From an uncultured bacterium (GTDB lineage Bacteria > Hydrothermota > Hydrothermia > UBA1063), in assembly GCA_964654765.1 (NCBI GenBank), contig CAZZKY010000146.1:14694-78693 (forward strand): a stretch of DNA of 64,000 nt, in the 5' to 3' direction. Position 1 is the stretch's first letter, and every line of letters starts with the position of its first letter. The position numbers and the translations under genes are program-made. Below, one piece after another: positions 33,663-53,765 of this stretch. The notes under the pieces were generated by a model. The model was not told the DNA's origin. It was given only the letters and a program-made list of their open reading frames with translations, and ran no database searches.

Positions 33663-33665
33663 ATT

Positions 33666-34181: not shown

Positions 34182-34182
34182 C

Positions 34183-34686
34183 TTAAATTTTCTCCTTTTG
34201 CAAAAAATTTTCGAGTTTTTGGGCGTATTCACCTGACTTGAGTTCTGAATCTCTCAGGAATAAGCTGGCTTTTGGCTTTGTGCCAGCTATTTTATAAATC
34301 TGCTCGACGATTTTTGCATTCTTTTCACCAAATCCCGATACTGATATCAGTGTAATTTCAGATTTTTTTAGGTTTTCAGAGAATTTTCTCAAAAAACTTG
34401 CCACTGGGGCAGGAAGATGCCCCGCCCATACTGGAGTGACCAGATAAATGTGGGTGAATTCTTCTCCGATTTCTCGTGACAATGTAAAAGGTACGTTCTT
34501 TTTAGTAAGTGCGTAGAAGGAGTCTTTAAAAAAGTTTCTTTTTGAGTTGTCTTCAATCTTCGAGATGTATATGCCTTTTAGCCTTGAAATCTCAATGGCA
34601 ATTTTCTGATTGTTCCCAGTTCCTGAAAAGTAAACTATAATCTCGCTCAATTTTTCTCTTCCTTCTCCATTAAACACCTTCTGCAT
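34183..34686 (-). CDS. Flavodoxin-like protein
   Basis: 'IIVYFSGTGNNQKIA' is the flavodoxin phosphate-binding loop. The true start is probably the TTG at 34650 ('LSEIIVYF...'), which overlaps the perR stop in a TTGA arrangement and is preceded by GAAGGAAG. The ATG at 34686 would overlap perR by 40 nt. Confidence 0.7.
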   Translation of the reverse strand: MQKVFNGEGREKLSEIIVYFSGTGNNQKIAIEISRLKGIYISKIEDNSKRNFFKDSFYALTKKNVPFTLSREIGEEFTHIYLVTPVWAGHLPAPVASFLRKFSENLKKSEITLISVSGFGEKNAKIVEQIYKIAGTKPKASLFLRDSELKSGEYAQKLENFLQKEKI

Positions 34687-36573: not shown

Positions 36574-38766
36574 CTAAGAGTTTGAAGTTCTGGCAAATTG
36601 AAGCAAATAAAGATGGTAATACATACCTTGTTTCTCAATAAGGGACTCATGAGTTCCCTCTTCTACAATCTTGCCGTCATATATAACGATAATCTTGTCA
36701 GCATCTTTAATTGTTGAAAGTCTGTGGGCTATTACAATGGAGGTCCTGCCTTTTAAAATCTTTTTGACTGCCTGTTGAATTAATTTTTCCGTGTACGAAT
36801 CAACATTGGCAGTAGCTTCATCCAGAACGAGGATTTTAGGATTAAAAGCCAGTGCTCTTGCAAAGGAAAGAAGTTGCCTTTCTCCAACAGAAAGAGATGC
36901 ACCTCTTTCACCCAGTAACGTTGAGTAACCGTTTTCCAACCTTTCTATGAAGGTATGGGCATAGACATTTTTGGCGGCTTCAATCACCCGTTCTTCGTCA
37001 ATCTGTGCGTTGTAGAGAGTGATATTTTTCTTTAGTTCTCCTGAGAAGATGAATACGTCTTGAAGTACGAGCCCCATCTGAGATCTTAAGTGATCAAGAT
37101 CGTACTCTTCAAGTGGTATATCATCAATCAGTATTTGTCCTTTTTGGTATGGGTAGAAGCCGAAGATTGCTGATATTAGGGAGGTTTTACCAGCTCCTGT
37201 AGGACCAACAATGGCTAAGGTTTCTCCGGGATTTACAACAAAGCTTATGTCTTTTAATACCCAGTTTTCTGAGTCATAAGCTAACCACACATTTTTAAAT
37301 TCAACCTTCCCGACAATTTCCTTTCTAAGCCCTTTCCCCTTAGGTTCTATAGGTTCGTCTAAGAGTTCAAAGATCCGATCACCAGCGGCCATAGCTGATT
37401 GCATAATGTTGTATTTTTCTGAAAATTCCATAATCGGCTGAAACAACATGTCTATGTATGATAGAAAAGCTACCAAGGACCCGAAAGTCAACATATTTCT
37501 AATTACTTCGCCGCCGCCTATCCAGATGATTAAAGCAACCGTTATCGCCCTCAGAAAATCAATAATTGGCCTAAAAGTCGCAAAAACGTAAAGTTGTTCA
37601 ATGTTGGCATCAAATAATTCTTTGTTGTAACCGCGGAATTTATTTTTTACTACATTTTCAAGGTTGAAAATTTGAATTATACGAATTCCGGAAATGCTTT
37701 CCTGTAGAAAGGCGTTAAGTTGTGCCAATTTTGCCCTTACTTTTCGGAAGGCATTTCGGACCTTTACTCTAAAGATAATTGTTACAACAAGAAGGATTGG
37801 CGCAACCGTGAGGACTAAAAGGGTGAGTTTCAAGTTCATTTTAGTCATTATGATTACTACACCTATGATGACGATGAAGTCTTTTATTAAGTGGATTAAC
37901 ACGGAACTTAGCATTTCAGCAATAGCAGAAACGTCGTTGGTAGCCCTTGTTACAAGACGGCCTGTGGGGTTTTTGTCAAAGTATGAAAGAGGTAAGTTCA
38001 GCAGGTGTTTTGTAATTACCATCCTCATATCGTACATTACCTTTTGAGTTACGTACTGAAGAGTGTAGCCTTGGAGGAAGGAAAAGAGGAAGGATAGGAA
38101 TAGTAGTATTACAAGCAGTGTTGCCAACTTGTACACTTCCCTGATATCTTCCCTTCGAATTTGAATTATCTGGGGTTTTGATAGAATGTTGATTTTATTT
38201 TGTTCAACAGCAAAGAGGCCGTTTGAAGCTCTTATAAAAAAGTCTTCTTTTCCAGGTATAACATCTTTTGTCAAAATGTATTTGGCTGTGCCAAAGGCTT
38301 TCTCTCTTTCAAGTTCGGCGGAGATTTCCCTCGAAAGGGCTGGCCTTCTTATTAAAACCTTTCCATTTTCCAGTCTTACTATGTAGGTTTCTAAGCTATA
38401 TTTTTCAATGTAAGAGGTGTTAGTAAGTTCAACATAGGATGGCATTATGTGGAAATCAATTGCCCTTCTATTTATGGCTGGAATGGCAATTTGAATAACA
38501 CTTGTTATAATCAGGAATGTAAAGGCTAAAACTATGCTCTTTTTGTAAGGCTCTGCAAATTTAAGCGTTCTCCTAAGCACTTTTCTATCGAAGAATTTTC
38601 CAGTTACTTCAGCATATGAACCGTGACCGGGACTACCGAACAAGTCCTTCCTCCATTTTTTGCAATTCAAAGATATGTTTGTAAAAGCCTTCCCGCGATA
38701 TAAGCTCTTCGTGAGTTCCCCTATCCAATATTTTTCCGTCATCCAGCACGAGAATTTCGTCTGCAT
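36574..38766 (-). CDS. ABC exporter, fused TMD-NBD half-transporter with a consensus ATPase site and a ~115-aa extracytoplasmic insertion between TM1 and TM2
   Basis: Walker A 'GPTGAGKTS', Walker B 'ILVLDEATANVD' with the catalytic E, a non-canonical signature 'LSVGERQ' and the H-loop 'IAHRLS'. The true start is probably downstream of the annotated ATG, since the ORF overlaps the upstream ABC gene by 134 nt. 'VLRRTLKFAEPYKK' resembles a typical exporter N-terminus. Confidence 0.85.
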   Translation of the reverse strand: MQTKFSCWMTEKYWIGELTKSLYRGKAFTNISLNCKKWRKDLFGSPGHGSYAEVTGKFFDRKVLRRTLKFAEPYKKSIVLAFTFLIITSVIQIAIPAINRRAIDFHIMPSYVELTNTSYIEKYSLETYIVRLENGKVLIRRPALSREISAELEREKAFGTAKYILTKDVIPGKEDFFIRASNGLFAVEQNKINILSKPQIIQIRREDIREVYKLATLLVILLFLSFLFSFLQGYTLQYVTQKVMYDMRMVITKHLLNLPLSYFDKNPTGRLVTRATNDVSAIAEMLSSVLIHLIKDFIVIIGVVIIMTKMNLKLTLLVLTVAPILLVVTIIFRVKVRNAFRKVRAKLAQLNAFLQESISGIRIIQIFNLENVVKNKFRGYNKELFDANIEQLYVFATFRPIIDFLRAITVALIIWIGGGEVIRNMLTFGSLVAFLSYIDMLFQPIMEFSEKYNIMQSAMAAGDRIFELLDEPIEPKGKGLRKEIVGKVEFKNVWLAYDSENWVLKDISFVVNPGETLAIVGPTGAGKTSLISAIFGFYPYQKGQILIDDIPLEEYDLDHLRSQMGLVLQDVFIFSGELKKNITLYNAQIDEERVIEAAKNVYAHTFIERLENGYSTLLGERGASLSVGERQLLSFARALAFNPKILVLDEATANVDSYTEKLIQQAVKKILKGRTSIVIAHRLSTIKDADKIIVIYDGKIVEEGTHESLIEKQGMYYHLYLLQFARTSNS

Positions 38767-40360
38767 TCATGATTGCGGAAACCCTGTGTGAAACGATAAT
38801 TGTTGTTTTGTCTGCCAGAAAATCTTCTAAGTTGCGAAGAATTTTGTTTTCAGTCTCAGTGTCAACAGCCGATAGTGCGTCATCTATAATGAAAATAGGT
38901 GCATTTTTCACAATGGCCCTTGCTATGGCTATTCTCTGCTTCTGCCCACCGGAAAGGGTAATTCCTCTTTCTCCGACGAGAGTATCAAGTCCATCGGGCA
39001 TTTTCATAACCTCATCGTATATCTCTGCAAGCTTTAATGCTTTTATTATTTCTTCTTCCGTCGCTTCAACCTTTCCGTAAGCTACATTCTCTCTTATAGT
39101 AGCCGAGAACAAAAGACTTTCTTGTGGAACGAAGCTTATTGCATTTCTCAAGTTTGTCAGGTCATGGTGGGTTACATCCACGTCATCGATGTAAATTGAA
39201 CCCTCGGGTGGGTCAAAAATCCTTGGTATAAGGTAACATAGCGTACTTTTCCCTGCCCCTGTTCTTCCAATAATTCCGAGTTTTTTACCCTTTTCAAGCT
39301 TGAAATTGATATCTATAAGAACAGGACGTCCACTGGTGTATGAGAAAGTGAGGTTTTTTACCTCAATATTTCCTTCTATTTTTATCTTTCTCGGACATTG
39401 TGGATTTTTTATTTCGGGTTCTACTTTGAGAATCCTTTCAATTCTATCCATTGAAGCAGAACCGCGTTGTAAAATGTTTACAAGGAAACCAACTGCAATC
39501 ATTGGCCATACCATCATACCCAGGTAGCTCGAAAAGGCTACAAAATCTCCAAGAGATATTTCGTTTAGTATCACCTTTCTTCCGCCGAAAAATAGGAGTA
39601 TTGCAAAAGATAGAGTAGCACCCAGTTGTATACCGGGTTCAAATAAGCTTGAAACCTTTGCAAGTTTCATATTTTTCTTGAAGTACAGTTCATTAGTGAC
39701 CCTAATATCTCCTATTTGGCCTTCTACCTGCGAGAAACCCTTTAAAACTCTGATTCCGACTATGGACTCTCTGATTTTTTCAGTAAGTTTGGAAAAGGTT
39801 TCTTGTACCTCCTTGAAGTATCGGTAGTTGAGTCTCCCAGAAAAAGATATGAGCAGGCTAATCAAAGGAAGCGGCAAAAGAGCGTAAATCGTTAGCATGG
39901 GCGAAATTTTAAACATTATAGCGAGAGAAAAAGTTGAATATACCAATATATCAGTGATTTGGACTAATCCCATTCCCGTTGCCATTCTTACAGCGTCAGT
40001 GTCGTTGGTTATCAAGGCCATCAATTCTCCTGTTCGCTCTCTGTTGAAAAAGCTTGCAGAAAGTTTTACAAGGTGGAAATATATTTCCTCTCTAATATCC
40101 CTTTCTACTTTTCTCGCAGTCCCCATTATGAAGTATCGCCAGAAAAATCTCAGGATTGCAATAATGAGGGTTAGACCAAGGATATAGAGGGCATATTTGC
40201 CGAGAATCTTAAATGTAGCCTGTCCAGATTGTAAAAGGTTAATACTTTTTCTTATTATGAGCGGTATTATCAGCTGTGCTCCATCAACAATAAGGAGGCT
40301 GAGAATGCCAAGAAAAACAAAAAGTTTGTATTTCCAAAGCCTTCTCAGTATGCCTTTCAT
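38633..40360 (-). CDS. ABC exporter, fused TMD-NBD half-transporter with a degenerate Walker B (partner of the preceding gene; heterodimeric TM287/288-like)
   Basis: Walker A 'GRTGAGKST' and a canonical signature 'LSGGQKQRIAIARA', but Walker B is 'IFIIDDALSAVD', so the catalytic Glu is replaced by Asp. Confidence 0.85.
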   Translation of the reverse strand: MKGILRRLWKYKLFVFLGILSLLIVDGAQLIIPLIIRKSINLLQSGQATFKILGKYALYILGLTLIIAILRFFWRYFIMGTARKVERDIREEIYFHLVKLSASFFNRERTGELMALITNDTDAVRMATGMGLVQITDILVYSTFSLAIMFKISPMLTIYALLPLPLISLLISFSGRLNYRYFKEVQETFSKLTEKIRESIVGIRVLKGFSQVEGQIGDIRVTNELYFKKNMKLAKVSSLFEPGIQLGATLSFAILLFFGGRKVILNEISLGDFVAFSSYLGMMVWPMIAVGFLVNILQRGSASMDRIERILKVEPEIKNPQCPRKIKIEGNIEVKNLTFSYTSGRPVLIDINFKLEKGKKLGIIGRTGAGKSTLCYLIPRIFDPPEGSIYIDDVDVTHHDLTNLRNAISFVPQESLLFSATIRENVAYGKVEATEEEIIKALKLAEIYDEVMKMPDGLDTLVGERGITLSGGQKQRIAIARAIVKNAPIFIIDDALSAVDTETENKILRNLEDFLADKTTIIVSHRVSAIMNADEILVLDDGKILDRGTHEELISREGFYKHIFELQKMEEGLVR

Positions 40361-41496
40361 AGAAGTGCTCTAATTATCGCAACCCCCTGAATTAGAAAAA
40401 CTGGTAATAAAACAGTTGAGTAAACATCTTTAAAGGAAATTTTGTAGTATTCTTTCGTAGTAATCAGGCAGAGATGGAAAGGTGAGATGAGCACACCGCT
40501 AATTGCGGAAATATACGCTAAATATGGGAATGCAGAATTTTGTATAAACAATATAGATAAGATGGGTGCAGTAGAGCCAATCCCTGCGGAAGTGATACCA
40601 GTTAGAAAAGCCATAGTCATTGGAAAAATGATTACCGGAACAATTTTGGGGACATTGTGCCTTTCTAAAAGGTTTGCAAAGCTGGTGAGGATATTGGTGT
40701 TTTCTACCACTCCTTTGAAAATCAAAACTACGAACACGATAAGGGTAATTTCTGAAAAAATTGAATTTTTAATGGTTGTAGTGATTTCTTTAATTTTCCC
40801 TTTCTCGAGGAGAAATAGTAATATCAAGACAGTGAGAAGGATGACTTTCAAATCAACTTTTAAAAGCGTTAATAGGATTATCAAGATAACAGGCCAGAGT
40901 GCTGAAAGTAGGTACTTAACTATCTCAAAGCTGTTGGCTTTTACTTTTTGACCGTTGCCATTCCCTTTTACCTTCGTGAATAGAAGGAATAGACCGATGA
41001 TAAAGGCAAAGCCAGTGTATGGGAGAGTAGAAATAATAAAATCTTTTACGGGTATATTGGCAAGTCCTGCTGCAATAATTAAGGCGCCGTAAAGGGGCCA
41101 AGAGAATTCACAAACGTGTCTAAACCAATAGTTGAAGAAAAATATCCATTTTTTTCGTGCATTTAACTCTTTTCCTGCTTTATTGCTCAGCTCCGCTGTT
41201 AACATTGCTCCAGCTGGCATTGGTAAGAGTCCAAAAATTAAAGGTGGGACAACCAATGAATATCTGATGTCTCCTGATAAGGATGAAATTAATTTTAAAA
41301 CTTTTAGATTGTAATTTTTTATTTTGAAGGTAGTGGTAATCGCCTGAACTAAAATGACGAGAATAAGAAGATTGAAAAAGGTATAGTTAAAAATCTTATG
41401 GAAATCCGAAATTTTGAAGTGGCCTAATATTAGAAATAGAATCGCTAATGCAAAAATGAAGAAGGTAGTGGAAAGAAGTCTGCTGTTTTTTAGCAT
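40357..41496 (-). CDS. Polytopic integral membrane protein of unknown function (about 10-12 TM helices, internal two-fold repeat; possible transporter)
   Basis: 379 aa and highly hydrophobic. Two halves each carry a Gly/Ala-rich re-entrant-like motif ('LPMPAGAMLTAELS' and 'LTGITSAGIGSTAPILS'). There is a 4-nt overlap with the ABC gene downstream, and it lies just downstream of marR. Confidence 0.45.
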   Translation of the reverse strand: MLKNSRLLSTTFFIFALAILFLILGHFKISDFHKIFNYTFFNLLILVILVQAITTTFKIKNYNLKVLKLISSLSGDIRYSLVVPPLIFGLLPMPAGAMLTAELSNKAGKELNARKKWIFFFNYWFRHVCEFSWPLYGALIIAAGLANIPVKDFIISTLPYTGFAFIIGLFLLFTKVKGNGNGQKVKANSFEIVKYLLSALWPVILIILLTLLKVDLKVILLTVLILLFLLEKGKIKEITTTIKNSIFSEITLIVFVVLIFKGVVENTNILTSFANLLERHNVPKIVPVIIFPMTMAFLTGITSAGIGSTAPILSILFIQNSAFPYLAYISAISGVLISPFHLCLITTKEYYKISFKDVYSTVLLPVFLIQGVAIIRALL

Positions 41497-41930
41497 CTTT
41501 TAGAGGATGAGTATTCCTGTAATTTATCCTTCATTTTATTAAGGAGTTCGAGAAATTTTTCCTTTTCTTCTTCTGTGAAGTCCAGCATTAACTTTCTTAA
41601 AAATTCAACTCTTTTATCAACAACCCTTTGGATCACTTCTTCACCCTGGGGGGTCAACACCACAATTTCGCTTCTTCTATCTGCTTCAACCTTTGCTCTC
41701 TTGACGAATCTCCTTTTTTCCAATCTTTCAACGATTCCCGAGATGGTGCTTTTTGCAAGGTATAGGTCTTTTGCTAAGTTAGTCTGGTTAAGAGGTCCGC
41801 AGAAATAAAGGTGTACCATTAGGTTGAACTGGGGAGGAGTGAGATTGATCTCCTTTAAGGCTGTTCTCCCTTCCTTCGTTACCTGGGAGTATACCTCCCT
41901 CATTACCCTTTCAACTTCTCTTTCTATCAT
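41490..41930 (-). CDS. MarR family transcriptional regulator
   Basis: 146 aa. The wHTH 'LTPPQFNLMVHLYFCGPLNQTNLAKDLYLAKSTISGIVERLEKRRFVKR' is the MarR signature. Confidence 0.8.
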   Translation of the reverse strand: MIEREVERVMREVYSQVTKEGRTALKEINLTPPQFNLMVHLYFCGPLNQTNLAKDLYLAKSTISGIVERLEKRRFVKRAKVEADRRSEIVVLTPQGEEVIQRVVDKRVEFLRKLMLDFTEEEKEKFLELLNKMKDKLQEYSSSKRC

Positions 41931-42068
41931 AAATAAACCTCCTGTTCGTATTGCTAACTATTTTATGTGAAAAATGGTGGTCAGTCAAAATTTGTTCATA
42001 TTCCAATGTTTTTTTCATGGATTTTTAACTTTCTATTTCGCGCCGTGAGTTTTATAATTTCAAACTAA
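41931..42068. promoter_or_regulatory. Divergent promoter region (marR/membrane/ABC operon leftwards; sdaA operon rightwards)
   Basis: A 138-nt AT-rich intergenic region with 'tataat' about 20 nt upstream of sdaA. Candidate MarR operator sites were not resolved. Confidence 0.3.
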
Positions 42069-43274
42069 ATGGAGTCTATTAAGCTCATATTTAAAATAGG
42101 TTATGGGCCTTCTTCATCCCACACAATGGGTCCTGTTGAAGCTCTCAGAGGGTTTTTGAAAAAGTTTCCTGAGGTGGTTTCTTTGAAGATTACACTTTTT
42201 GGAAGTCTTGCTGCCACAGGTAAAGGTCATCTTACTGAGGAGGCTTTGCGAAAGTCTTTTAATGGTAAATTGGAAATTTTGGAAAAACCTGATGAGTATT
42301 TCCCGCTACATCCCAACGCGTTAAAATTTGAGGGCTTTGATAGTTCAGGGAATCTTATCGCCGAAAAGGTTTTTTATAGCATTGGGGGAGGTGTAGTAAA
42401 GACGGAAGATGATTTTTTTAAAAAAGAAGATGTCTATCCGTTAAATACGATGGAGGAGATTCTGGATTGGTGTGACTCAGAGGGAAGAAGCTTGTGGGAG
42501 TTTGTTGAAATTTACGAGGGAAAAGAAATCTGGGGTTATTTAAAAGAAGTGTGGAAGGTAATGGAGGATTCAATAGCTCGGGGTTTGAATAATGAAGGTG
42601 TTCTTCCTGGGGAGTTACACCTTCCCAGAAAGGCATGGTCATACTATATTAAAGCGGTTAATTCTAAAAATATTACACACAATAAGGGTAAGGTCTTTTC
42701 TTATGCCCTTGCGGTGGCTGAGGAGAACGCTGCAGGAGGACTTATTGTGACAGCGCCTACCTGTGGCTCATGTGGAGTTGTCCCCGCTGTGCTTCACTTT
42801 TTAAAAGAAGAGTATAACCTTTCTGAAGATAAGATTCTGAGAGCCCTCGCTACCGCAGGTCTTATGGGGGCGCTTGTTAGAGAGAATGCTTCCATTTCCG
42901 GGGCAGAAGTAGGTTGTCAGGGAGAAATTGGAGTTGCCTGTGCTATGGCTGCTGCAGCAGCTACTCAAATTCTTGGAGGAACAATCTTTCAGGTTGAATA
43001 TGCCGCCGAAATGGGGATTGAGCACCACCTCGGACTAACCTGTGACCCAGTTCTTGGATACGTACAAATCCCCTGTATTGAAAGGAATGCAGTTGCAGCC
43101 GGCAGGGCTTTAGAGTGTGCAGTTTATGCCCTTCATTCCGACGGGAGACATATGATTTCTTTTGATTCAGTTCTTAAGACAATGATGGAAACGGGAAGGG
43201 ATCTCCCTTCGGCCTATAAAGAGACTGCAAAAGGGGGACTTGCCCTTCATTGGAGAGATAGAAAAAAGAGATGA
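42069..43274 (+). CDS. sdaA: L-serine dehydratase ([4Fe-4S]-dependent), single-chain short form
   Basis: 401 aa. The N-terminal 'IGYGPSSSHTMGP' matches the SdaA 'GPSSSHTxGP' motif, and the cluster cysteines sit in 'CGSCGVVPAV', 'GCQGEIGVACAMA' and 'CDPVLGYVQIPCIERNA'. Confidence 0.8.
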   Translation: MESIKLIFKIGYGPSSSHTMGPVEALRGFLKKFPEVVSLKITLFGSLAATGKGHLTEEALRKSFNGKLEILEKPDEYFPLHPNALKFEGFDSSGNLIAEKVFYSIGGGVVKTEDDFFKKEDVYPLNTMEEILDWCDSEGRSLWEFVEIYEGKEIWGYLKEVWKVMEDSIARGLNNEGVLPGELHLPRKAWSYYIKAVNSKNITHNKGKVFSYALAVAEENAAGGLIVTAPTCGSCGVVPAVLHFLKEEYNLSEDKILRALATAGLMGALVRENASISGAEVGCQGEIGVACAMAAAAATQILGGTIFQVEYAAEMGIEHHLGLTCDPVLGYVQIPCIERNAVAAGRALECAVYALHSDGRHMISFDSVLKTMMETGRDLPSAYKETAKGGLALHWRDRKKR

Positions 43275-44497
43275 CATTTCTCTTAAAAATTGTTGTTAGC
43301 TATTACATATTTATCCCAATGGATAATACACAATTTGACCACCTCAGGGCTTATGGGGTGGTCTATAACTCTTTAAGAGCTGGAGTGAAAGCAGAATGGA
43401 TTCTTAATTTTAGAGGCGGTTCTTTTCTCCTGGATGATACAAAGGTTGTGCGCGAACTCCTTTCCATTACAGGAGTATCCTATGAAGTGATTCCCGAAGA
43501 AAACGTGGTAGAACTTCAAGAACGTTCTAAAAGTGAAAATTTTGAGTTCGTTATTCTTGAAAATGCACCAAGGGTGGGTGTTTATGCACCTCCTTATTAT
43601 GAGCCGTGGGATGATCCAGTTATTATGGTTCTTGAATATGCCCAAATCCCTTTTGAACAGATATACGACGAAGAGGTCTTAAATGGGCGTCTTAAGGATT
43701 TTGACTGGGTACACTTGCACCATGAAGATTTTACAGGACAATTTGGCAAGTTTTATGCTTCTTATGGAAACACGGATTGGTACAAAAATCAGGTGGAATT
43801 TAAAAAGTCGCTTGCCATAAAGCTTGGGTTTAAAAACGTGGCTGAATTGAAAAGGACTATTGCTAAGACTTTTTATAACTATGTCAGTGAAGGTAAATAC
43901 TTATTTGCCATGTGCTCTGCCCCCATAACCTTAGATATTGCTCTCGCATCAGAAGGCGTTGATATTCTGGATATTCCTTTTGATGGAACACCCTTTGATC
44001 CTAATTGTAATTCTAAACTCGACTATTCAAAAACTGTTGCTTTCAGGGACTTTAAGCTTTTTCCACAATTTTATATATATGAACATTCAGATGTGGATAT
44101 GACTCAGGACGTAGTACAGTTGGGAGAGGAAAATGCATACTTCGTCCTGCACCAATTTTCGCCTAAGACCGACCTCATACCCTGTATTCTTACCCAGAAT
44201 CATAAAACGGTCATAAAAGATTTTCTGGGACAGGATACTGGCTTCAGAAGAAGTAAATTGAAAAAAAATACGGTGGTTCTTGGTGATGTCCCAGGAACTG
44301 AATATGTCAAGTATGTTTATGGTGAGCTGGGAAAGGGTTTTTTTGCCTTTCTTGGAGGCCATGACCCCGAAGATTTTCAGCATTTTGTGGGCGATCCACC
44401 TACGGATGTCGCAAAATATAAGAATTCCCCAGGGTACAGGCTGATTTTGAACAACATTTTTTTGCCTTCAGCCCAGAAGAAAAGGTTAAAAACTTAA
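43271..44497 (+). CDS. Hypothetical protein (408 aa), translationally coupled to sdaA; possible class-I glutamine-amidotransferase-like (ThuA/Glyco_hydro_42M-like) fold
   Basis: ATGA overlap with the sdaA stop. No signal peptide and no canonical family motifs were recognised. A weak nucleophile-elbow-like 'LFAMCSAPITLD' and 'FDWVHLHHEDFTG' suggest an amidotransferase-like fold. Confidence 0.4.
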   Translation: MTFLLKIVVSYYIFIPMDNTQFDHLRAYGVVYNSLRAGVKAEWILNFRGGSFLLDDTKVVRELLSITGVSYEVIPEENVVELQERSKSENFEFVILENAPRVGVYAPPYYEPWDDPVIMVLEYAQIPFEQIYDEEVLNGRLKDFDWVHLHHEDFTGQFGKFYASYGNTDWYKNQVEFKKSLAIKLGFKNVAELKRTIAKTFYNYVSEGKYLFAMCSAPITLDIALASEGVDILDIPFDGTPFDPNCNSKLDYSKTVAFRDFKLFPQFYIYEHSDVDMTQDVVQLGEENAYFVLHQFSPKTDLIPCILTQNHKTVIKDFLGQDTGFRRSKLKKNTVVLGDVPGTEYVKYVYGELGKGFFAFLGGHDPEDFQHFVGDPPTDVAKYKNSPGYRLILNNIFLPSAQKKRLKT

Positions 44498-45121
44498 TTA
44501 ATCCCAGATGAGGATTTGATTTTGGGGAACTATTTTCCTCAATTTTTTCGTTGGGTTTACTGCAAAAAAAATTCCCGAAGCTTCAAGAAAGTGAATGTCT
44601 TTATGGTGATCTGCGTAAGTGATCGAATTTTTAAGTTCAATTCCCTCCCTTCTTGCAATCTCTTTAAGAATGAATTCCTTATTTTTTCCAAAGGGAATTT
44701 TCCCCTTTATTTTTCCGGTGTATTTACCATTTCTTATTTCAAGAAATGATGCATAAAATCCCTCCAATTTTAAATAATCACTAACTACCTGAGCAATGAA
44801 ATCGGGTGCCCCAGTAATGAGAAAAAGTCTATAACCTTCCTTTCTTTTTTGTTCTATATGGTCTATTGCTTTCTGGGAGATGGCCTTGATGATTTTATTT
44901 TGGCTTGATTTAAGTACTTTATAAATGTGTTCCGCCTTCAACCCGTGATAGTAAGCCTTTGAATTTTTAAAATTTTTGTATTTGAAGAGTGATTCGAGAA
45001 ACCATATCACTACACCCGATGGTGAAATTTGAAGTTTCTTGAATAGAATTTTCAGGAATCTTACTTCTGAGGAAGGATTTGGTATCAGTGTCCCATCCAA
45101 GTCAAAGAAGCAGGCTTTGCT
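44498..45121 (-). CDS. HAD-superfamily phosphatase (subfamily IB, phosphoserine-phosphatase-like)
   Basis: The start is at 'MSKACFFDLDGTLI' (motif I, DxDGT). Motif II is 'ITGAP' and motif IV is 'YADHHKD'. The start codon shares one nucleotide with the stop of the upstream CDP-alcohol transferase gene. Confidence 0.75.
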   Translation of the reverse strand, partial: SKACFFDLDGTLIPNPSSEVRFLKILFKKLQISPSGVVIWFLESLFKYKNFKNSKAYYHGLKAEHIYKVLKSSQNKIIKAISQKAIDHIEQKRKEGYRLFLITGAPDFIAQVVSDYLKLEGFYASFLEIRNGKYTGKIKGKIPFGKNKEFILKEIARREGIELKNSITYADHHKDIHFLEASGIFFAVNPTKKLRKIVPQNQILIWD

Positions 45122-45717
45122 CATTTGTTTTTGAGATAAGGCCAAGCATCTAAGATTACAGGGAGTCCTCTTGCTATGCAAATAATAAGAGATATCCAGG
45201 CGAAGGCAAGGGCAACTCCATGAATGTTGAAAGACAGTTTTCCATGGATGGTTAGGAGGTCAATCCCAAGAAGAGTAAAAGCGATGGCCTTTGAGAGAGC
45301 GTAACCGGTTCTGAAATAGCCTGAGGTTACAATAAATCTGGCGATCTTGTTATTGTGCATCTCGTAAGGTTTTACACCTTTCTTGAAAGCCGAACTCCTT
45401 ATTGTATCTACTACAACATCCCTGGTTATTACAATTACTGGAAACCAAAAGGAGATCCGTCCCTTTACTGCGAAAAAGATCCAGAATATGAATTCAACAA
45501 TGCGGTCGCCCGTAATATCAAGTATGGCACCAATCTCCGATTCTGCATTGAGGGTTCTTGCAAGGAAGCCATCAAGGAAGTCTGTAAATATTATTATTAC
45601 GATTAAAATGCAGGCTGCAAAGGTAGTTCCATACCTACCAAGGTCAAGAAGATAGAGGGTTAAAAAGCTGAGTAGAATTCTCAGGATACTAATTATATTT
45701 GGTAGGTTCCTTCTCAT
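45121..45717 (-). CDS. CDP-alcohol phosphatidyltransferase family protein
   Basis: 198 aa. 'DFLDGFLARTLNAESEIGAILDITGDRIVE' matches the D-G-x2-A-R-x8-G-x3-D-x3-D signature. Confidence 0.8.
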   Translation of the reverse strand: MRRNLPNIISILRILLSFLTLYLLDLGRYGTTFAACILIVIIIFTDFLDGFLARTLNAESEIGAILDITGDRIVEFIFWIFFAVKGRISFWFPVIVITRDVVVDTIRSSAFKKGVKPYEMHNNKIARFIVTSGYFRTGYALSKAIAFTLLGIDLLTIHGKLSFNIHGVALAFAWISLIICIARGLPVILDAWPYLKNK

Positions 45718-48700
45718 TTTACCACTACTACTTTTTGGATTGTTTTAATGTTTTCGGCTTCTACTTTTATAAAGTATACTCCAGGGGTTGCGTTTTCAAA
45801 AGGAATTTGGATAATAGAGTAGTTTGTGTCTGCTTGGATTTCTGTTTTAGTAAACAGACTGCCATAAATATTGTAAATGGATACTATAAAGGGCCCAGAA
45901 ATTCCCGAATAGATTTTTAATTTGAGAGGTGATCCCACTTTAATAATGTTATTGATAACGAGCTTCTTAAGGTTTAAACTGTCTCTGACGACTGATGAGT
46001 CAATTATATAAGCGAAATATTCTCCTCCCTCGATATTTCCGTTCTGTGTTAAAGGCCTTGGCACTTGCCACTGCAAAGTGCCGCCGTCTTCTGTTGAGTA
46101 GGAACCCACAGCGATGTAAATAACATTTAAATTTCCATAAAGTGAGAGATCAATGACTCCTTCTAAATAACCAAGGTCGCTGAAATAGGAAGCGCATTTA
46201 AAATGGATTGTGTCTGTTATTAAGGTACCTGTTGAATCAAACCACCCTACAAAATCATTGTTGTCTTCATCAGCTAAGAAGAACTGATATCTTCCAACTT
46301 GTCCCAGCTTTGCCCATGGCGCATTTACCATGGTAGAAGGTTCAAAAGATATGAATATGAAATGATCGTTAAAAAAGTATCCTGACTGATTCGCTGAGGC
46401 ATTACCTGCGGATTCAGTAGCAACATAAAGCCTCTTTGTATTTCGATCGTAGTACCCGTAAAGATGCATATTTTCGTTTTGGGCTAATAGGACAGCAACT
46501 CTATCAACGACGCCGTCCATGACAAAATCTTGGAACCCGACGGTGTATGAATAATTCTGGCCATTATTATTGTCCCAGTTCTCATTTTGATAGGGTGAGT
46601 TGTCTTTCGCACGAATAGCAAAATATACCCTTGTACCGGTAGGTTGGGGAGGTAGGTAAACACCGTAAAGTGCAGAATCTGGTTCGTGATTTCCATTATA
46701 ATCCCGACTTTGGCCATCATCGGGAAACATTTGAATATCAGTGTAAGATTGCCAGTTGTTGTTTGTATATCTTACCCAAGCGCCCAATATCCCAGACGGA
46801 TCGAGAATATTACTGGTCACAAGTACACTATCCATTTCGAGTATATTATAATTCGGGCTAAAAGTTGTATTCCAGATTCTTGGACCTTCCCTGTCTCCAG
46901 GACCCGGGACATCTACGTCTGGATCATCTTTTCCAGCGTAAAAGTAAATTGTGTAAGTTCCATTTCTTCCTCCAACTTCTATAAGCTCTGCTCCCGAGGA
47001 CATTTTGCCAAGGAAATTAAAGGTTAATCCAGTCCCTGAAGGATAAAGGAATACGGCTTTAATAGAATCGTAAAGGCTTTCGTATCCACCATAGGTCCAG
47101 CCGTTTTCACTGATCCCGTAGAGAGGCCTCATATTGTATCTGCGAAGAAGCTGTTTATAGAGTGAAGGAGTTACACCAGCCTTTGTCCAGTTGGAGTAGG
47201 TAGAGGAGTAGGTTATTGATACATAATTTTTACCAGTGGTCAGTTTTATTGTTTTAGTCAAGTCGTTCTGAGGAGTTCCGTTCCATGCATAACGCTCTGT
47301 GAAAGTAATAACTGCGGTGTCACCGAAGTAAGACACATTCACGTCAAACCATGAATTTTCACCTTGCGAATCGTTAAAAAGACCAGGGTGTCCCCCATCG
47401 TTATAATCACCTTCACCGTTCCAGTTGCTCATAAGATTTCCCACCACACAAGAAGGATCGGAAGTAAATACTGCAAGGGCTCGACCTCCCCTCCGATCAA
47501 AAATTAAGCACAATTTATCATTGTAAATTGTGTATTCTTTAACTCCATCTGCATCCAAGTCAAGGCTGTCAATTTTTGGGATTTCTTGAAATCTGAGAGA
47601 GTCAAGCCAAATTGCACCGTAACCGAAAATTGCTCCGTATCTTGTGTGGTTCCACAAATTTTTCCCCCAGTAAACGAGTTCTCCGCCAGGGCCAGTATGC
47701 CAAGCGGTTTCATAAAGCATAGAAGACAATGTGAGCCACCCCAATTTTGAAAATTCGTTATCTGGAGTATTCATAAGGTAGTTGTATGCAAATTTCCACA
47801 GATCTTCATAATCACCGTTAATTCCATTTCCATTCAAGTCAGGTCCATTCTCGCATCCCCATCCTACCGCTGATTTGAAATTGTTGTACCAGTTGTCATA
47901 AGTACCACCAGTCCAATCGTGGAGTTCCTGGTAGGTTGCATAATCTATATTTATGATTGGTGGGTCGTTATAGGGATCACTGTCGTAAATTTTATCAACC
48001 CCCCACCATTTTACTGCCTCGGCAATGTGAATGGGTTGTATCCAGTTTTGCTCTTTTATGAACCTTATATTCCAGTCATAACTAGAAGCGGGTGCCCCTG
48101 GCTGACCGAAATCCCAGCCCGCAACCCCTGCTGCCTTTTCCCAGTCGTCGCCATAAATTACTATCTGTTCTTGATCCGGGTCGTTTGCAAGGGAAGATAG
48201 GAGTTGATGTAAAGGATTTGAAGGGTTAGATACGTCATTCCAGACCATCTGATCCCTGGCAACTTTTTGAATAAATACAACAAAGACATAATTGCCTTCA
48301 CTATCAAACATTCTATGAACTTTCCGTGAATTGTTGCAGATGCTACCATCAGGGTAAGTATGAGAATACCACTCGTGGACATTATCATCTAAAACAATAC
48401 AGGGTGCAAGGTATCTACCCTGCGAATCATATTTACCGTATTCTTCGTTTAAGACCTTAATTAAAGAGTAGGGCATAAGGAGTTGTGACTTGAAAACTCG
48501 TTCTGGAACCCATATTACATTCGGATATTCAGGCCATCCAACTCCTTTAATTGAATTCTGATATAATGTTTTTGCGTACCAGAGTGAAAACTTATTTATG
48601 TTTCTATCAACATAAGGCATAATATGTTCTGCATAAGTACCGCCGACGAGGTAAACCAAATCTCCTCGGAGCCTATTAAGTAAACCACGATCGTTTTGCA

Positions 48701-48929
48701 TCCACGTATAAGATTGAGTTAGTGTTCCTGAAATATGTATGTCAATAGGGCAGTTGTAATATTCATGGGTATCGAGGGTGCGGTGGAAAGAGTTACCATT
48801 GTATCCATAGTCCCCAGGTCTCAATGCATAGTAGCCGTTGTCTGAGAAATGCTGGTTTCCATGATGTAAAAAAGCGATTTTTGCAGTTCCACCTAAAAGT
48901 ATAAGTTTAATTATTATTGCAAATAGCAT
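45714..48929 (-). CDS. Large secreted protein (1071 aa) with GH57-like glycoside hydrolase motifs and a T9SS/Por C-terminal sorting domain
   Basis: Signal peptide 'MLFAIIIKLILLGGTAKIAF'. The candidate GH57 conserved regions are 'FLHHGNQHF' (CSR1-like), 'LVGGTYAEHIMPYV' (CSR2-like HPILP), 'VIWVPERVF' (CSR3 with the nucleophile Glu), 'YGDDWEKAAG' (CSR4-like) and 'AEAVKWWG' (CSR5-like). The C-terminal 'FIVSIYNIYGSLF...PGVYFIKVEAENIKTIQKVVVVK' is a T9SS CTD. Confidence 0.55.
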   Translation of the reverse strand: MLFAIIIKLILLGGTAKIAFLHHGNQHFSDNGYYALRPGDYGYNGNSFHRTLDTHEYYNCPIDIHISGTLTQSYTWMQNDRGLLNRLRGDLVYLVGGTYAEHIMPYVDRNINKFSLWYAKTLYQNSIKGVGWPEYPNVIWVPERVFKSQLLMPYSLIKVLNEEYGKYDSQGRYLAPCIVLDDNVHEWYSHTYPDGSICNNSRKVHRMFDSEGNYVFVVFIQKVARDQMVWNDVSNPSNPLHQLLSSLANDPDQEQIVIYGDDWEKAAGVAGWDFGQPGAPASSYDWNIRFIKEQNWIQPIHIAEAVKWWGVDKIYDSDPYNDPPIINIDYATYQELHDWTGGTYDNWYNNFKSAVGWGCENGPDLNGNGINGDYEDLWKFAYNYLMNTPDNEFSKLGWLTLSSMLYETAWHTGPGGELVYWGKNLWNHTRYGAIFGYGAIWLDSLRFQEIPKIDSLDLDADGVKEYTIYNDKLCLIFDRRGGRALAVFTSDPSCVVGNLMSNWNGEGDYNDGGHPGLFNDSQGENSWFDVNVSYFGDTAVITFTERYAWNGTPQNDLTKTIKLTTGKNYVSITYSSTYSNWTKAGVTPSLYKQLLRRYNMRPLYGISENGWTYGGYESLYDSIKAVFLYPSGTGLTFNFLGKMSSGAELIEVGGRNGTYTIYFYAGKDDPDVDVPGPGDREGPRIWNTTFSPNYNILEMDSVLVTSNILDPSGILGAWVRYTNNNWQSYTDIQMFPDDGQSRDYNGNHEPDSALYGVYLPPQPTGTRVYFAIRAKDNSPYQNENWDNNNGQNYSYTVGFQDFVMDGVVDRVAVLLAQNENMHLYGYYDRNTKRLYVATESAGNASANQSGYFFNDHFIFISFEPSTMVNAPWAKLGQVGRYQFFLADEDNNDFVGWFDSTGTLITDTIHFKCASYFSDLGYLEGVIDLSLYGNLNVIYIAVGSYSTEDGGTLQWQVPRPLTQNGNIEGGEYFAYIIDSSVVRDSLNLKKLVINNIIKVGSPLKLKIYSGISGPFIVSIYNIYGSLFTKTEIQADTNYSIIQIPFENATPGVYFIKVEAENIKTIQKVVVVK

Positions 48930-49391: not shown

Positions 49392-51362
49392 ATGGCAAAG
49401 GTAGCTTTAAAGAAAGTAGTTTTTTATGTACATTATTTAGAGAGAGAAAGATTGCTGGAGCGACTTCAGGACGAGGGACTCGTCCATTTCACCGAAATTA
49501 GGCGGGATTTAAAAGATGAATTCGAAGTTACTCATCTTTCTGAGGTTGAATTTGAATCCCATCTCGAGTCTGTATTAACACGGCTTTCTAATGCTATAAA
49601 GTTTCTTGAGAGTTATACCCGTAAAAAATCTTTTATAGAGAGCTTATATGAAGCAAAAAAGCCTGTTGAGAAGAAAGAATTTTTCAGGATAGCGCGCTGT
49701 GTTGAACCTGGTACAATTCTCGTTCAGGTTGAGACCCTTGAGCAAGAGTTGGCTCAGTTAGCCCAAGAAGAGTCCAACCTTTTGGCTCAGAAGAATTTCA
49801 TTTTACCTTGGGTTAATCTGGAATACAATCTTGAAGATATAAAGAGTACCGATGAATTGGTAATGGCGCCGGGTTCACTGCCCAGCGGTAAAATAGCTGA
49901 CCTTGAGGAACTCCCTTTGGCATGTCAACTTGTATATGATGATGGCAAAAGGGCCTATGTTGTTCTAATTTACCACAAAAAGGACGAGGATTTAATTCGA
50001 CCAATTCTACAGGAAAAAGAGTTTGAACCTGTTGAGTTCCACGGTTACCATGGTCGCCCTGCTGAAATTCTAAGAGAATTGGATGAAAAACTTAACATCC
50101 TTGAAGAGGAAAAGAAAAATTTAAAGCAGGCAATTGAAAAAGTTTCCAGGCATTATGATGTACTTACCATATTATACGATTATTATCAATCAGTTTACAA
50201 TAGAGAGTTGATAGACAACCGTGGGCTAAAGACTGCCAGTATCTCGGTTTACCAAGGTTATGTGAGGGAAAGAGAGCTCGCAAGGCTTGAAAAAGTCTTT
50301 TCCGAATTTGAAACTGCCTACTATGAAGTAGTTGAACCAGAAGATGGAGAGGAAGTTCCCGTTGAATTGGAAAACAGGAAGATTTTTAAACCGTTTGAAG
50401 GTCTGGTGAAGATGTATGGGCTTCCCTCTCCCATTGACCCTGACCCTACTGCGATCATAACGCCCTTTTTTATTCTATTTTTTGGGATTTGCTATGGAGA
50501 TGCCGCCTACGGATTACTACTTTCATTACTATCTATCTGGTTTATGAGGAAGCTGAAAATTTCAGCACCCCTTTTATGGATTCTTTTTGCTGGTGGAATC
50601 GCCTCCATGATTTTCGGTGCTATTACAGGCGGGTGGTTCGGGGATTTCTTTGAAAGGGCAAATATAGGTTTTCTCAATGCGTTTCGAAGGAAGATGATGG
50701 TTTTTGACCCAATGAATGATGTGATGACCTTTTTTGCTTTAACGATTGCCCTTGGTTTCATTCAAGTAAATGTGGGACTTGCAGTAAATGCCTACAAGAG
50801 GATTAGAGAGGGAGATACCATTGGGGCCATTTCTCAGCCTATTGCCTGGATAGTTATTTTATCTTCCCTTGTTTATCTTGGTCTTTTTGCAGGTAAGATT
50901 TCAAATCCACTGCTTAATAACACGGTGAAAGCACTGGCACTATTTTTCGTCCTATTAATGGTTTTGTTCAGTTCAAGGCATAGCAGGAATTTTGTTATTC
51001 GTATTGTGAAAGGTGCCTATAATGTTTACAATGGTGTTGGCTTCATAGGGGATCTTCTTTCCTACGTGCGTTTGATGGCTCTTGGCCTAACTTCCTCTGG
51101 AATTGCAATGGCTATCAATATCTTAACTCTGCTCGTTTGGCAAATTCCCATTGCTGGTTATATTCTTGGACCTTTGGTCTTTATTTTTGGGCATTTGTTC
51201 AGCCTTGCGATAAATATTCTCGGTTCAATTGTGCATCCGTTACGTTTGCAATATGTTGAGTTTTTCAAGCAGTTTTATGACGATGGTGGGACACCGTTCC
51301 TTCCTTTGAAGTGGGAGGGAAAATACACTGAAATTGTTGAAATTAAAAAACAGGAGGTGTAA
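49392..51362 (+). CDS. atpI: V-type ATPase subunit I (membrane a-subunit)
   Basis: 656 aa with an N-terminal ~330-aa soluble coiled-coil domain and C-terminal multi-TM domain. The essential Arg lies in 'LSYVRLMALGL'. Confidence 0.9.
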   Translation: MAKVALKKVVFYVHYLERERLLERLQDEGLVHFTEIRRDLKDEFEVTHLSEVEFESHLESVLTRLSNAIKFLESYTRKKSFIESLYEAKKPVEKKEFFRIARCVEPGTILVQVETLEQELAQLAQEESNLLAQKNFILPWVNLEYNLEDIKSTDELVMAPGSLPSGKIADLEELPLACQLVYDDGKRAYVVLIYHKKDEDLIRPILQEKEFEPVEFHGYHGRPAEILRELDEKLNILEEEKKNLKQAIEKVSRHYDVLTILYDYYQSVYNRELIDNRGLKTASISVYQGYVRERELARLEKVFSEFETAYYEVVEPEDGEEVPVELENRKIFKPFEGLVKMYGLPSPIDPDPTAIITPFFILFFGICYGDAAYGLLLSLLSIWFMRKLKISAPLLWILFAGGIASMIFGAITGGWFGDFFERANIGFLNAFRRKMMVFDPMNDVMTFFALTIALGFIQVNVGLAVNAYKRIREGDTIGAISQPIAWIVILSSLVYLGLFAGKISNPLLNNTVKALALFFVLLMVLFSSRHSRNFVIRIVKGAYNVYNGVGFIGDLLSYVRLMALGLTSSGIAMAINILTLLVWQIPIAGYILGPLVFIFGHLFSLAINILGSIVHPLRLQYVEFFKQFYDDGGTPFLPLKWEGKYTEIVEIKKQEV

Positions 51363-51363
51363 A

Positions 51364-51834
51364 TTGACTGCAGGACTTTGGTTATCAATACTTGGTGCTG
51401 GACTGGCGACCTTTTTGCCGGGTCTTGGTTCAGCAATAGGGGTTGGCACGACAGCAAGGGCTGCTGCAGGTGTTCTTTCTGAAGATCCAAGTAAGTTTGG
51501 AAGGTTGTTTCTCCTGGTAGCCCTTCCAGGTACTCAGGGTTTTTACGGATTTATTGCGGCTCTCCTTGTCATAATTAAAGTTGGTCTTTTGGGTGAGGTT
51601 AAGCCTCTTGATTTCATGCAGGGGCTTCAGATTTTCCTTGCCACTATTCCGATAACTTTTCTTGGGTACTTTTCAGCCATACATCAGGGTAAAGTGTGTA
51701 CTGCTGGTGTTGAGATGGCTGCTAAAAAGCCCGAATCTTCCATGCAACCAGTTATTTATGCAGGTTTAGTTGAAACTTACGCTGTTCTTGGCCTTCTTGC
51801 TACTATATTTATTCTACTTGGCATTAAGGTTTAA
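51364..51834 (+). CDS. atpK: V-type ATPase subunit K (proteolipid c-subunit)
   Basis: A TTG start after the AGGAGG RBS ('LTAGLWLSILGAGLATFLPGLGSAIGVG'). It has four TM helices and the ion-binding Glu in 'GLVETYAVLGLL'. The upstream ATG at 51334 overlaps atpI and is less likely. Confidence 0.85.
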   Translation: MTAGLWLSILGAGLATFLPGLGSAIGVGTTARAAAGVLSEDPSKFGRLFLLVALPGTQGFYGFIAALLVIIKVGLLGEVKPLDFMQGLQIFLATIPITFLGYFSAIHQGKVCTAGVEMAAKKPESSMQPVIYAGLVETYAVLGLLATIFILLGIKV

Positions 51835-51845
51835 GGAGGTCGATA

Positions 51846-52421
51846 TTGGGCCTTCAAGAGATACTGAATAAAATTAAAGAAGAGACTGAACTTAAAAGGC
51901 GAGGAATCCTCGATAGAGCAATAGCTGAAAGAGAAAGAATCCTGAAAGAAGCGGATGCTCGAGTGGAGGAAATTCTTCATAAAGCCCAGCAGGAAAAGGA
52001 GAAGCTGGTAATTCAAAAGCTTAATGCACTAATTGCAGATTACGAAATAAAGTCAAATGTTGAAATTGCTAAAATAAAAAGGGAAATTTTGAAAAGGGTT
52101 TACGAAAAGGTCCAGAGGTACATAATCGAAAATAAGCAGATTTACAGCGAGATTGTAAGAAAGCTGTTTGAACTGGTTGAATTGAATGGAGATGAGGAAA
52201 TATTTGTTCAAGAGGGTGAGTCGGTAATCAACAGGGATTTCATAGACCAGATAAACAGGGAAAAGGGTTGGAAATTGAAGCTATCAGAGAATCCTGTCAG
52301 GATCAGTGGTGGATTCATTGCGAAGGGTCCAAATTCGGTTATAGACGCTTCCATAGAGAAACTCATCGAAATTTTACAGGAGGAGACTGAAGTTCATGTG
52401 TCAAACATTTTGTTTTTCTAA
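51846..52421 (+). CDS. atpE: V-type ATPase subunit E (peripheral stalk)
   Basis: 191 aa. It has an N-terminal long charged helix and a C-terminal globular domain, occupies the position after K, and has a TTG start with an AAGGAGG RBS. Confidence 0.8.
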   Translation: MGLQEILNKIKEETELKRRGILDRAIAERERILKEADARVEEILHKAQQEKEKLVIQKLNALIADYEIKSNVEIAKIKREILKRVYEKVQRYIIENKQIYSEIVRKLFELVELNGDEEIFVQEGESVINRDFIDQINREKGWKLKLSENPVRISGGFIAKGPNSVIDASIEKLIEILQEETEVHVSNILFF

Positions 52422-52430
52422 GTAACAGTT

Positions 52431-53755: not shown

Positions 53756-53765
53756 GAGGTTGAAA

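Follow-up and report, generated by a model that had tools for sequence, protein, structure and literature searches.

An uncharacterised FCB-superphylum protein family with a class I glutamine-amidotransferase-like fold, one member of which is encoded next to an L-serine dehydratase gene

In a stretch of 64,000 nucleotides from an uncultured Hydrothermota bacterium (contig CAZZKY010000146.1; hereafter the window), the stop codon of sdaA, the gene for a single-chain iron-sulfur L-serine dehydratase, overlaps the start codon of a gene for a 408-aa protein (here called X). What is this protein, and does the overlap tie it to SdaA? A first-pass annotation of the locus had read the overlap as a functional link to SdaA and had suggested that the protein might act on serine-derived products or protect the Fe-S cluster. 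The overlap itself was confirmed as ATGA, with the ATG of the 408-aa gene at 43271-43273 and the TGA of sdaA at 43272-43274. We find that the 408-aa gene is a typical representative of an uncharacterised family of the Fibrobacteres-Chlorobi-Bacteroidetes (FCB) superphylum, one that is very large and strongly conserved, and that it lies beside sdaA by a chance of local gene order and not as a functional partner. The features at the junction are:

42069 to 43274, + strand: sdaA, a single-chain iron-sulfur L-serine dehydratase of 401 aa with a shortened beta domain, assigned by NCBIfam and Pfam matches
43271 to 43274, + strand: ATGA, where the sdaA stop and the start of the 408-aa gene overlap, read directly in the sequence
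43271 to 44497, + strand: the 408-aa gene (X), of a family of the FCB superphylum with a class I glutamine amidotransferase (GATase1)/ThuA-like fold, carrying the database name 'asparagine synthetase B'

The family, its name and its fold

A word-indexed homolog search returned at least 8000 clusters, with 8000/8000 scored candidates at E<=0.001, and an exhaustive profile search gave 1749 representatives at 50% clustering. Homologs carrying phylum names in the word-indexed search came from WOR-3, Hydrothermota, TA06, Calditrichae and Cloacimonadota, and genome loci extend the family to Bacteroidota (cultured Pedobacter included), Ignavibacteria, Latescibacterota, Zixibacteria, Eisenbacteria, Marinimicrobia and others, with more than 600 matches among genomes. 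These homologs are 46-57% identical to the window protein, and between phyla the family retains 50-57% identity. An alignment of 40 family sequences contains about 90 invariant positions, among them the motifs 'IPMD' (16-18), 'PWDD' (112-115), 'HLHHEDF' (148-154), Cys215 in 'FAMCSAP', 'GGHDPED' (362-368), 'SPGYRLILNN' (386-395) and the C-terminal 'LKT'. Invariant positions occupied by His, Asp, Glu or Cys are unusually numerous and include H24, H148, H150, H151, D153, C215, H311, H364, D365, E367, D368 and H371, and every family-invariant residue is unchanged in the window copy. Much of this pattern is retained in a divergent set of 27 sequences (down to 24-46% identity), where Phe154 is present in 27/27, His151 and Asp153 each in 26/27, Cys215 and P366 each in 24/27, H148 in 23/27, and H150 and H364 each in 22/27. 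The two motifs quoted by the first-pass annotation, LFAMCSAPITLD and FDWVHLHHEDFTG, are both present, and it is here that the family turns out to be most conserved.

The same annotation had seen no recognisable catalytic family in the protein, and the searches agree: the window protein matched no Pfam or NCBIfam family at E<=1. Forty family members searched against Pfam at E<=10 gave stray matches only (DUF4159 in 2/40, BPL_N in 1/40), and neither the single protein nor the family profile matched a PDB sequence at E<=10. The exact window protein is nevertheless on record as NCBI MDI6850666.1 and UniRef A0A7V4E547 (candidate division WOR-3), both named 'asparagine synthetase B', and the same name stands on P0011, P0012, P0085, P0096, P0274, P0299, P0300 and other family members. 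The name is unfounded: none of the 40 members, even at E<=10, matched a model for asparagine synthase or for an amidotransferase. Judged by sequence, 'asparagine synthetase B' is the wrong name for this family of ~410-aa proteins. Literature searches covering DUF4159/DUF4175, AsnB in Bacteroidetes/Flavobacterium, and GATase-like proteins with TPR or T9SS returned no paper on the family. The MliR regulon of Bizionia includes an 'asparagine synthetase B' that is not mappable to a sequence (PMC9478572).

We modelled the protein with AlphaFold2 on the family alignment (mean pLDDT 89.9, pTM 0.90). Foldseek matched the model to STM3548 (2gk3), lin1909 and SpuA over alignments of ~330 columns, indicating one GATase1-like core with large insertions. 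The core is flavodoxin-like alpha/beta, with a parallel sheet at its centre, and superposes on GATase1, ThuA or DJ-1 domains. In the predicted structure, then, the core of the 408-aa protein is shown to be class I glutamine-amidotransferase-like (ThuA/DUF4159-like) alpha/beta with large insertions, and a GATase1- or ThuA-like fold, hinted at in the first-pass annotation, is borne out. At the fold level X is a member of the class I glutamine-amidotransferase-like superfamily; it lies outside every sequence family described there (GATase, C26, DJ-1/PfpI, ThuA, DUF4159). The sites that stand out in the alignment and the model are:

43712 to 43732, + strand: His-rich loop H148-L-H-H-E-D-F154, at the GATase1 oxyanion-loop position after the 'DWVHL' strand; H148, H150, H151, D153 and F154 invariant (n=40)
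43913 to 43915, + strand: Cys215, candidate nucleophile in the elbow 'YLFAMCSAP'; invariant in 40/40, present in 24/27 divergent sequences
44360 to 44374, + strand: H364-D-P-E-D368 ('GGHDPED'), candidate counterpart of the GATase1 'HPE'; invariant in 40/40, its correspondence to 'FHPE' drawn by eye only
44471 to 44494, + strand: basic C-terminal tail AQKKRLKT; K407 and T408 invariant (n=40), 'LKT' near-universal in the family; tail listed for 120 homologs

In the model, Cys215 lies between strand E210-214 and helix H217-226, as a nucleophile-elbow residue would, and strand E146-150 is also present. GGHDPED follows the hairpin E345-353/E356-361 and precedes the C-terminal helix H387-396; this is the secondary-structure position of 'HPE', but the spacing ('HDPE') differs. 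Profile-profile comparison with hhalign gave a single signal, with DUF4159, in which 'IREYVxxGGFLFAMC' of the family aligned to 'LRxYLxxGGFLHADD' over 17 columns at 22% probability, matching the helix and strand ahead of Cys215. Against the GATase domain of CTP synthase (from loci L028 and L056) hhalign gave no alignment in local or global mode, with a profile of only 1-2 GATases.

The protein cannot extend further at its N-terminus, since an in-frame TAG stands at 43259-43261. The invariant Met17 was considered as the true start and rejected, because the 'I/L-L/F-I/V-P' before it is conserved at the protein level; these residues form strand 1 of the model.

Envelope location and gene context

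Directly ahead of the invariant 'ILIPMD', about half of the 120 homologs listed have a canonical Sec signal peptide. These signal peptides are 16-30 residues long and many end in '...A/S/G-Q', in line with the Bacteroidetes Q-rule (PMC5837995). Four members (P0122, P0124, P0128 and P0138) end in a type IX secretion system (T9SS) sorting domain (Por_Secre_tail, 33-56 bits, cutoff 27), and P0128 is named 'T9SS type A sorting domain-containing protein' at NCBI; the T9SS-bearing members are exclusively divergent proteins of ~500 aa. Some WOR-3 members are fused at the C-terminus to an OmpA/NspA-like outer-membrane barrel, and in these ~600-aa variants the basic tail ('LKT' region) forms the linker ahead of the barrel. 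Because of the Sec signal peptides, T9SS sorting domains and outer-membrane barrel fusions, the family is placed outside the cytoplasm: these predicted signals show it to be extracytoplasmic and exported to the cell envelope.

The first-pass annotation had found no signal peptide. That description stands for the window copy to the extent that it has a hydrophobic leader only, and it does not extend to the family. The window copy ends in '...KKRLKT' and has no T9SS sorting domain. Its leader is:

43271 to 43306, + strand: hydrophobic leader MTFLLKIVVSYY, 12 residues, which may be a short signal peptide; the homologs have theirs here

Similarly short, uncharged hydrophobic leaders are found on other putative exported proteins of the window, namely a T9SS cargo protein (MLFAIIIKLILLGGTAKIA) and two DUF3857 proteins (MLKIIITFLVFGKFA and MLFLSILLFGQY). 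The proteins with such leaders are encoded at 45714-48929 (-), 56948-58846 (+), 58850-60589 (+) and 60958-62298 (+), the last bearing the leader MNSGLILALFLSFS. Since other window proteins that should be exported have equally short leaders, export of the window copy is plausible from its sequence. It may be that this lineage uses unusually short signal peptides, which would mislead standard predictors.

To place the family in its genomic context, we sampled 80 genome loci across the FCB superphylum, with up to 10 kb on each side. The commonest neighbour is a gene for a ~620-aa TPR protein, upstream on the same strand in 35/69 assessable loci and directly adjacent in 27. Its repeats are of YbgF/CpoB type, with the protein of locus L005 scoring 96.5 bits against TIGR02795 (cutoff 90.1); similarity to BamD is below cutoff. 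The TPR partner is thus shown to be a periplasmic YbgF/CpoB-like protein. In nine loci labelled with several different candidate phyla, the TPR gene and the family gene are part of a conserved four-gene envelope operon:

L005, 3975 to 11194: DUF4159-DUF4175-TPR-X operon, found also in L012, L015, L021, L023, L026, L041, L044 and L065

The DUF4159 protein of this operon is exported and GATase1-like, and the DUF4175 protein is ~1100 aa long, membrane-anchored and rich in charged low-complexity sequence. We found no description of the operon. For DUF4175, the literature found holds only a mention concerning AdvA of Acinetobacter (PMC7481262). In Ignavibacteria the order is TPR-HslU-X, and in Bacteroidota it is often DnaB-X. 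In the 58%-identity relative L092 (4669-6880) the family gene has 4-nt overlaps on both sides, with a gene for a 111-aa PASTA-domain protein at its start and one for a 221-aa metallo-beta-lactamase-fold protein at its end; the PASTA neighbour may hint at a peptidoglycan-related context. In relatives at 57-59% identity the family gene stands alone, with feoAB directly downstream in one lineage. The window itself lacks the envelope operon. Directly upstream of the 408-aa gene is sdaA and not a TPR gene, and tblastn of the 64-kb window for TPR, DUF4175, DUF4159, UPF0047, FAA hydrolase, HslU and DnaB found none of them.

Possible function and the sdaA adjacency

We lean, by a little more than an even chance, towards a reading in which the 408-aa protein belongs to an exported, TPR-partnered envelope family that acts as a Cys215 hydrolase, and in which the overlap with sdaA reflects compaction. 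The catalytic part of this reading, a thiol hydrolase of GATase1/C26 type, is suggested by sequence and model at odds slightly short of even. In such an enzyme Cys215 would be the nucleophile, and His364 together with Glu367 (or Asp365) would complete a GATase1-type triad. The 'HHEDF' loop would stand in place of the usual 'PGG' oxyanion loop, and the invariant His148/His150/His151/Asp153 loop would shape the active site as an oxyanion, substrate or possibly metal site. The bond cleaved may be of amide or gamma-glutamyl type in an envelope substrate, possibly one derived from peptidoglycan, at which the CpoB-like and PASTA neighbours would hint, and the TPR partner would serve as an adaptor that docks the substrate. 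The ATGA overlap would have come about by genome compaction once sdaA had taken the place of an ancestral upstream TPR gene, with no shared function.

Several observations weigh against this reading. The triad is assigned by secondary-structure position and motif resemblance only, the hhalign comparison with CTP synthase was empty, and the DUF4159 alignment reached just 22% probability over 17 columns. The 'HDPE' spacing is unlike the canonical 'HPE', and the structures nearest to the model (ThuA-like, STM3548, the GH42 middle domain and 3rht) are not known Cys hydrolases. The invariant His/Asp/Cys cluster could equally be a metal site. In the literature we found neither a catalytic activity or substrate for any family member nor a paper on the family. 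As for location, the window copy has no barrel and a 12-residue leader only. Finally, every relative examined at >=73% identity has stably retained the sdaA-X pair, so that co-expression is real in this lineage, though a shared function is unlikely.

Some of these points would fit better with a non-catalytic or metal-binding envelope protein, a reading we hold to be possible but rather doubtful. The core would then be a binding or scaffold module, as in ThuA-like proteins, GIFT (GldG/IFT52/OST48) and the GH42 middle domain, or a metal site; in the latter version Cys215, His148/150/151/364 and Asp/Glu residues would bind Zn, Fe or Cu for hydrolysis, redox or metal handling. The unusually many invariant His, Asp, Glu and Cys residues are in keeping with it, as are the departure of 'HDPE' from 'HPE', the feoAB genes directly downstream in one lineage and the closest structural neighbours, which are not Cys hydrolases. 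However, an elbow Cys and a His right after the penultimate hairpin, both invariant, form the arrangement of catalytic GATase1, C26 and MetA enzymes. DUF4159, the nearest related family and one without known activity, has Asp where X has Cys215, and conservation as strict as that of the X family is commoner in enzymes than in scaffolds.

Extending the hydrolase reading, the family might be a core and possibly essential envelope enzyme throughout the FCB superphylum, with a new variant of the GATase1 active site (Cys215, HxHH loop, HDPE), working with CpoB/YbgF-like TPR, DUF4175 and DUF4159 proteins as part of a system, not described so far, for modifying or recycling some component of the cell wall or outer membrane. 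We put this forward as speculation, with the balance of probability well on the other side. Such an enzyme would have gone unnoticed because its members are mislabelled 'asparagine synthetase B' and have no Pfam model.

The question raised by the junction is whether the protein is instead a cytoplasmic, translationally coupled partner of SdaA that handles a serine-derived product (2-aminoacrylate, pyruvate or ammonia) or keeps the oxygen-labile 4Fe-4S cluster intact, by protection or repair. This we consider very improbable. The sdaA gene itself is well assigned: its product scores 430 bits against TIGR00720 (sda_mono, single-chain L-serine ammonia-lyase; cutoff 345), and 276 and 98 bits against SDH_alpha and SDH_beta of Pfam. 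About positions 68-113 of the 450-position TIGR00720 model, part of the beta domain, have no counterpart in the 401-aa product, which is therefore a shortened single-chain serine dehydratase, and sdaA of close relatives has the same short form (400-407 aa).

The ATGA overlap with X is real, and at 73-89% identity every relative examined (P0003, P0004, P0009 and P0011) still has the pair, with sdaA and X adjacent and their reading frames overlapping or touching. The window copy lacks a canonical signal peptide, as a cytoplasmic protein would, and its Cys/His-rich sites could bind Fe or S species. Yet these four relatives share the whole arrangement ABC-ABC-DUF401-MarR / sdaA-X / HAD-CDP-OH-transferase-T9SS cargo, and because the whole locus is syntenic in relatives of >=73% identity, the sdaA adjacency is inherited. 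P0012 (Hydrothermota, 65% identity) has the MarR/DUF401/ABC flank too, but there the sdaA slot is occupied by a gene for a 977-aa TPR-GGDEF protein, which overlaps X by 4 nt; a vWA gene comes next. The PASTA gene holds the slot at 58% identity, and at 57-59% identity the gene is alone. The sdaA neighbour is thus lost at 65%, 58% and 57% identity and seen only at >=73%, and in the relatives examined X overlaps whichever gene lies 5' (sdaA, TPR-GGDEF or PASTA). Across the FCB superphylum, 0/80 diverse genomes have an SdaA homolog within +-10 kb of the family gene. The first-pass annotation had itself named sdaA co-occurrence across genomes as the test of its idea, and by that test the idea fails.

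The adjacency is thereby shown to be confined to one WOR-3 sublineage, in which it arose once, most simply by replacement of an ancestral upstream TPR gene. Nor is the overlap special here, because 6/39 co-directional neighbour pairs of the window share an exact 4-nt overlap; 16/39 overlap to some extent, in a window with ~94% coding density and 39% GC. A functional link to SdaA does not follow from so routine a junction. The Fe-S serine dehydratase is a cytoplasmic enzyme, and the 408-aa family, other WOR-3 bacteria included, is by contrast exported or outer-membrane-anchored. In the window copy the family-invariant residues are all unchanged, giving no sign of a new function. Action on serine-derived products or protection of the Fe-S cluster is accordingly not supported.

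The weakest reading takes the database label as right, making the protein an asparagine synthetase B or another glutamine-dependent amidotransferase subunit of central metabolism; it has the NCBI and UniRef names and the GATase-like fold in its favour, and is hardly credible for a protein of ~410 aa that has no N-terminal Cys2 and no SGGxDS PP-loop motif, bears a hydrophobic leader at its N-terminus, has a class I fold where that of AsnB is class II, belongs to a family with export signals, is never fused to or beside a synthase partner in the loci examined, and comes from a family of which 40 members gave no Asn_synthase, class II (Ntn) or class I GATase match, even at E<=10.

With the failure of the accessory-factor idea, nothing changes for serine metabolism. 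The interest lies in the family itself and not in the sdaA junction: it has thousands of members throughout the FCB superphylum, some of them in Bacteroidota that can be cultivated (Pedobacter, for example), and its strong identity between phyla is unusual for exported proteins. It has neither a Pfam or NCBIfam model nor a solved structure, and its wrong name spreads via NCBI and UniRef and could create false calls of asparagine biosynthesis when metabolism is reconstructed from metagenome-assembled genomes (MAGs) of WOR-3, Bacteroidota and their relatives. Correcting the label would end such calls in WOR-3 and other uncultivated lineages. Together with a definition of the family and a test of the predicted Cys-His site, it would fill a gap in the envelope biology of Bacteroidota and their relatives.

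Neighbouring genes and comparison with known systems

Downstream, the TAA of the 408-aa gene (44495-44497) directly abuts TTA at 44498-44500, the stop of a convergent gene. This zero-spacer TAATTA junction had been described in the first-pass annotation and is confirmed. The convergent gene is:

44498 to 45124, - strand: HAD-IB family hydrolase, 208 aa from ATG; Pfam HAD 75.6 bits, TIGR01490 93.8 bits (slightly under cutoff)

The gene most likely begins with the ATG at 45124 (208 aa) and not with the TTG at 45181, to which the mechanical open reading frame (ORF) reaches; relatives are called at 208-214 aa. At 44498-45717 (-) the gene is joined by a 4-nt overlap to one for a 198-aa CDP-alcohol phosphatidyltransferase, and the two look like a synthase/phosphatase pair for lipid head-group synthesis. 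The HAD phosphatase was considered as a link to serine metabolism (SerB-like, 60 bits against a cutoff of 144) and rejected, being convergent, partnered with the CDP-alcohol phosphatidyltransferase and not in the family context elsewhere. In the 80 loci, no homolog of HAD, MarR, DUF401 or the CDP-alcohol transferase lay within 10 kb of a family gene. A promoter and terminator scan of 41400-45300 gave a signal no richer than in shuffles. Rfam (gathering threshold) and tRNA scans of the whole 64-kb window found no family and no tRNA gene, so no riboswitch or RNA element lies at the sdaA/408-aa locus.

Beyond this pair, 45714-48929 (-) encodes a 1071-aa protein. Its C-terminal T9SS sorting domain is borderline (26.9 bits against a cutoff of 27) and scores higher in relatives, and it also has a starch-binding stretch resembling CBM21. 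The protein is probably secreted as a glycan-active cargo, and it shows that type IX secretion exists in this WOR-3 organism. A V/A-type ATPase operon at 49392-56907 (+) comprises subunit I, proteolipid c, a 191-aa ORF, C/AC39 (d-type) and the catalytic subunits A and B, and is followed at 56948-60589 by two paralogous DUF3857/transglutaminase-like genes. On the other side, a MarR-DUF401-ABC-ABC operon (36574-41930, -) is divergent from sdaA and still lies beside the family gene in the 65%-identity Hydrothermota relative without sdaA. Its mechanical ORF at 36574-38766 shares 134 nt with the gene upstream of it, so that the true start probably lies further downstream; in relatives the called length is 688-689 aa. 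At 32472-34686 (-), genes for an ODP/metallo-beta-lactamase-fold protein (395 aa) and a flavin reductase (187 aa) and a flavodoxin-like ORF lie in a row, a set that resembles a split flavodiiron-type O2/NO detoxification system.

How does X compare with systems that have been described? AsnB is built of a class II (Ntn) amidotransferase domain, which carries Cys2 and stands at the N-terminus, and a PP-loop synthetase domain at the C-terminus. Both domains are absent from X, and what the two proteins have in common is the name and a 'glutamine amidotransferase' flavour.

A functional parallel, by analogy only, is offered by envelope hydrolases that work with TPR proteins. NlpI-Prc of E. coli pairs an envelope hydrolase with a TPR scaffold that chooses cell-wall-related substrates, and LbcA-CtpA of Pseudomonas is a periplasmic protease and TPR-adaptor pair (PMC6050968), which X and its YbgF/CpoB-like TPR neighbour would resemble. 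Both systems differ from X in that their hydrolase fold and catalytic type are unrelated, and the 64-kb window has no such TPR gene.

In fold, X stands near the ThuA-like/GATase1-like proteins (PDB 1t0b, 4jqs, 4e5v, 3rht and 2gk3; Pfam ThuA PF06283), none of which matches it in sequence at E<=10. Compared with them, X is ~160 residues longer with large insertions, has the invariant elbow Cys, the HxHHEDF loop, GGHDPED and the basic C-terminal tail, and belongs to a family with export signals and outer-membrane anchors. DUF4159 (PF13709) is like X exported and GATase1-like, and shares its operon in 9 loci. The sequence link between the two is weak, with 2/40 members matching at E ~0.05 and hhalign aligning the 'yVxxGGFLFA' element at 22% probability. 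Unlike X, DUF4159 is ~220 aa long, has Asp at the position of Cys215, and lacks HxHHEDF and GGHDPED.

With the catalytic class I GATases and C26 hydrolases (HisH, PabA, Pdx2, gamma-glutamyl hydrolase, SpuA/PuuD and lin1909), X shares a Cys between strand and helix and an invariant His after the last hairpin, followed by a C-terminal helix. By eye, the CTP synthase segments 'PFFGICLG', 'FVASQFHPE' and 'PLFVGFLKA' resemble 'YLFAMCSA', 'FFAFLGGHDPE' and 'GYRLILNNIFL' of X. In contrast to these enzymes, X has no sequence homology to them detectable with Pfam or hhalign, reads 'HDPE' for 'HPE' and 'HHEDF' for the 'PGG' oxyanion loop, and is extracytoplasmic with no synthase partner. The feature set of X, comprising the elbow Cys, the HxHH loop, HDPE, the basic 'LKT' tail and alternative envelope anchors, is one that has not been described together before.

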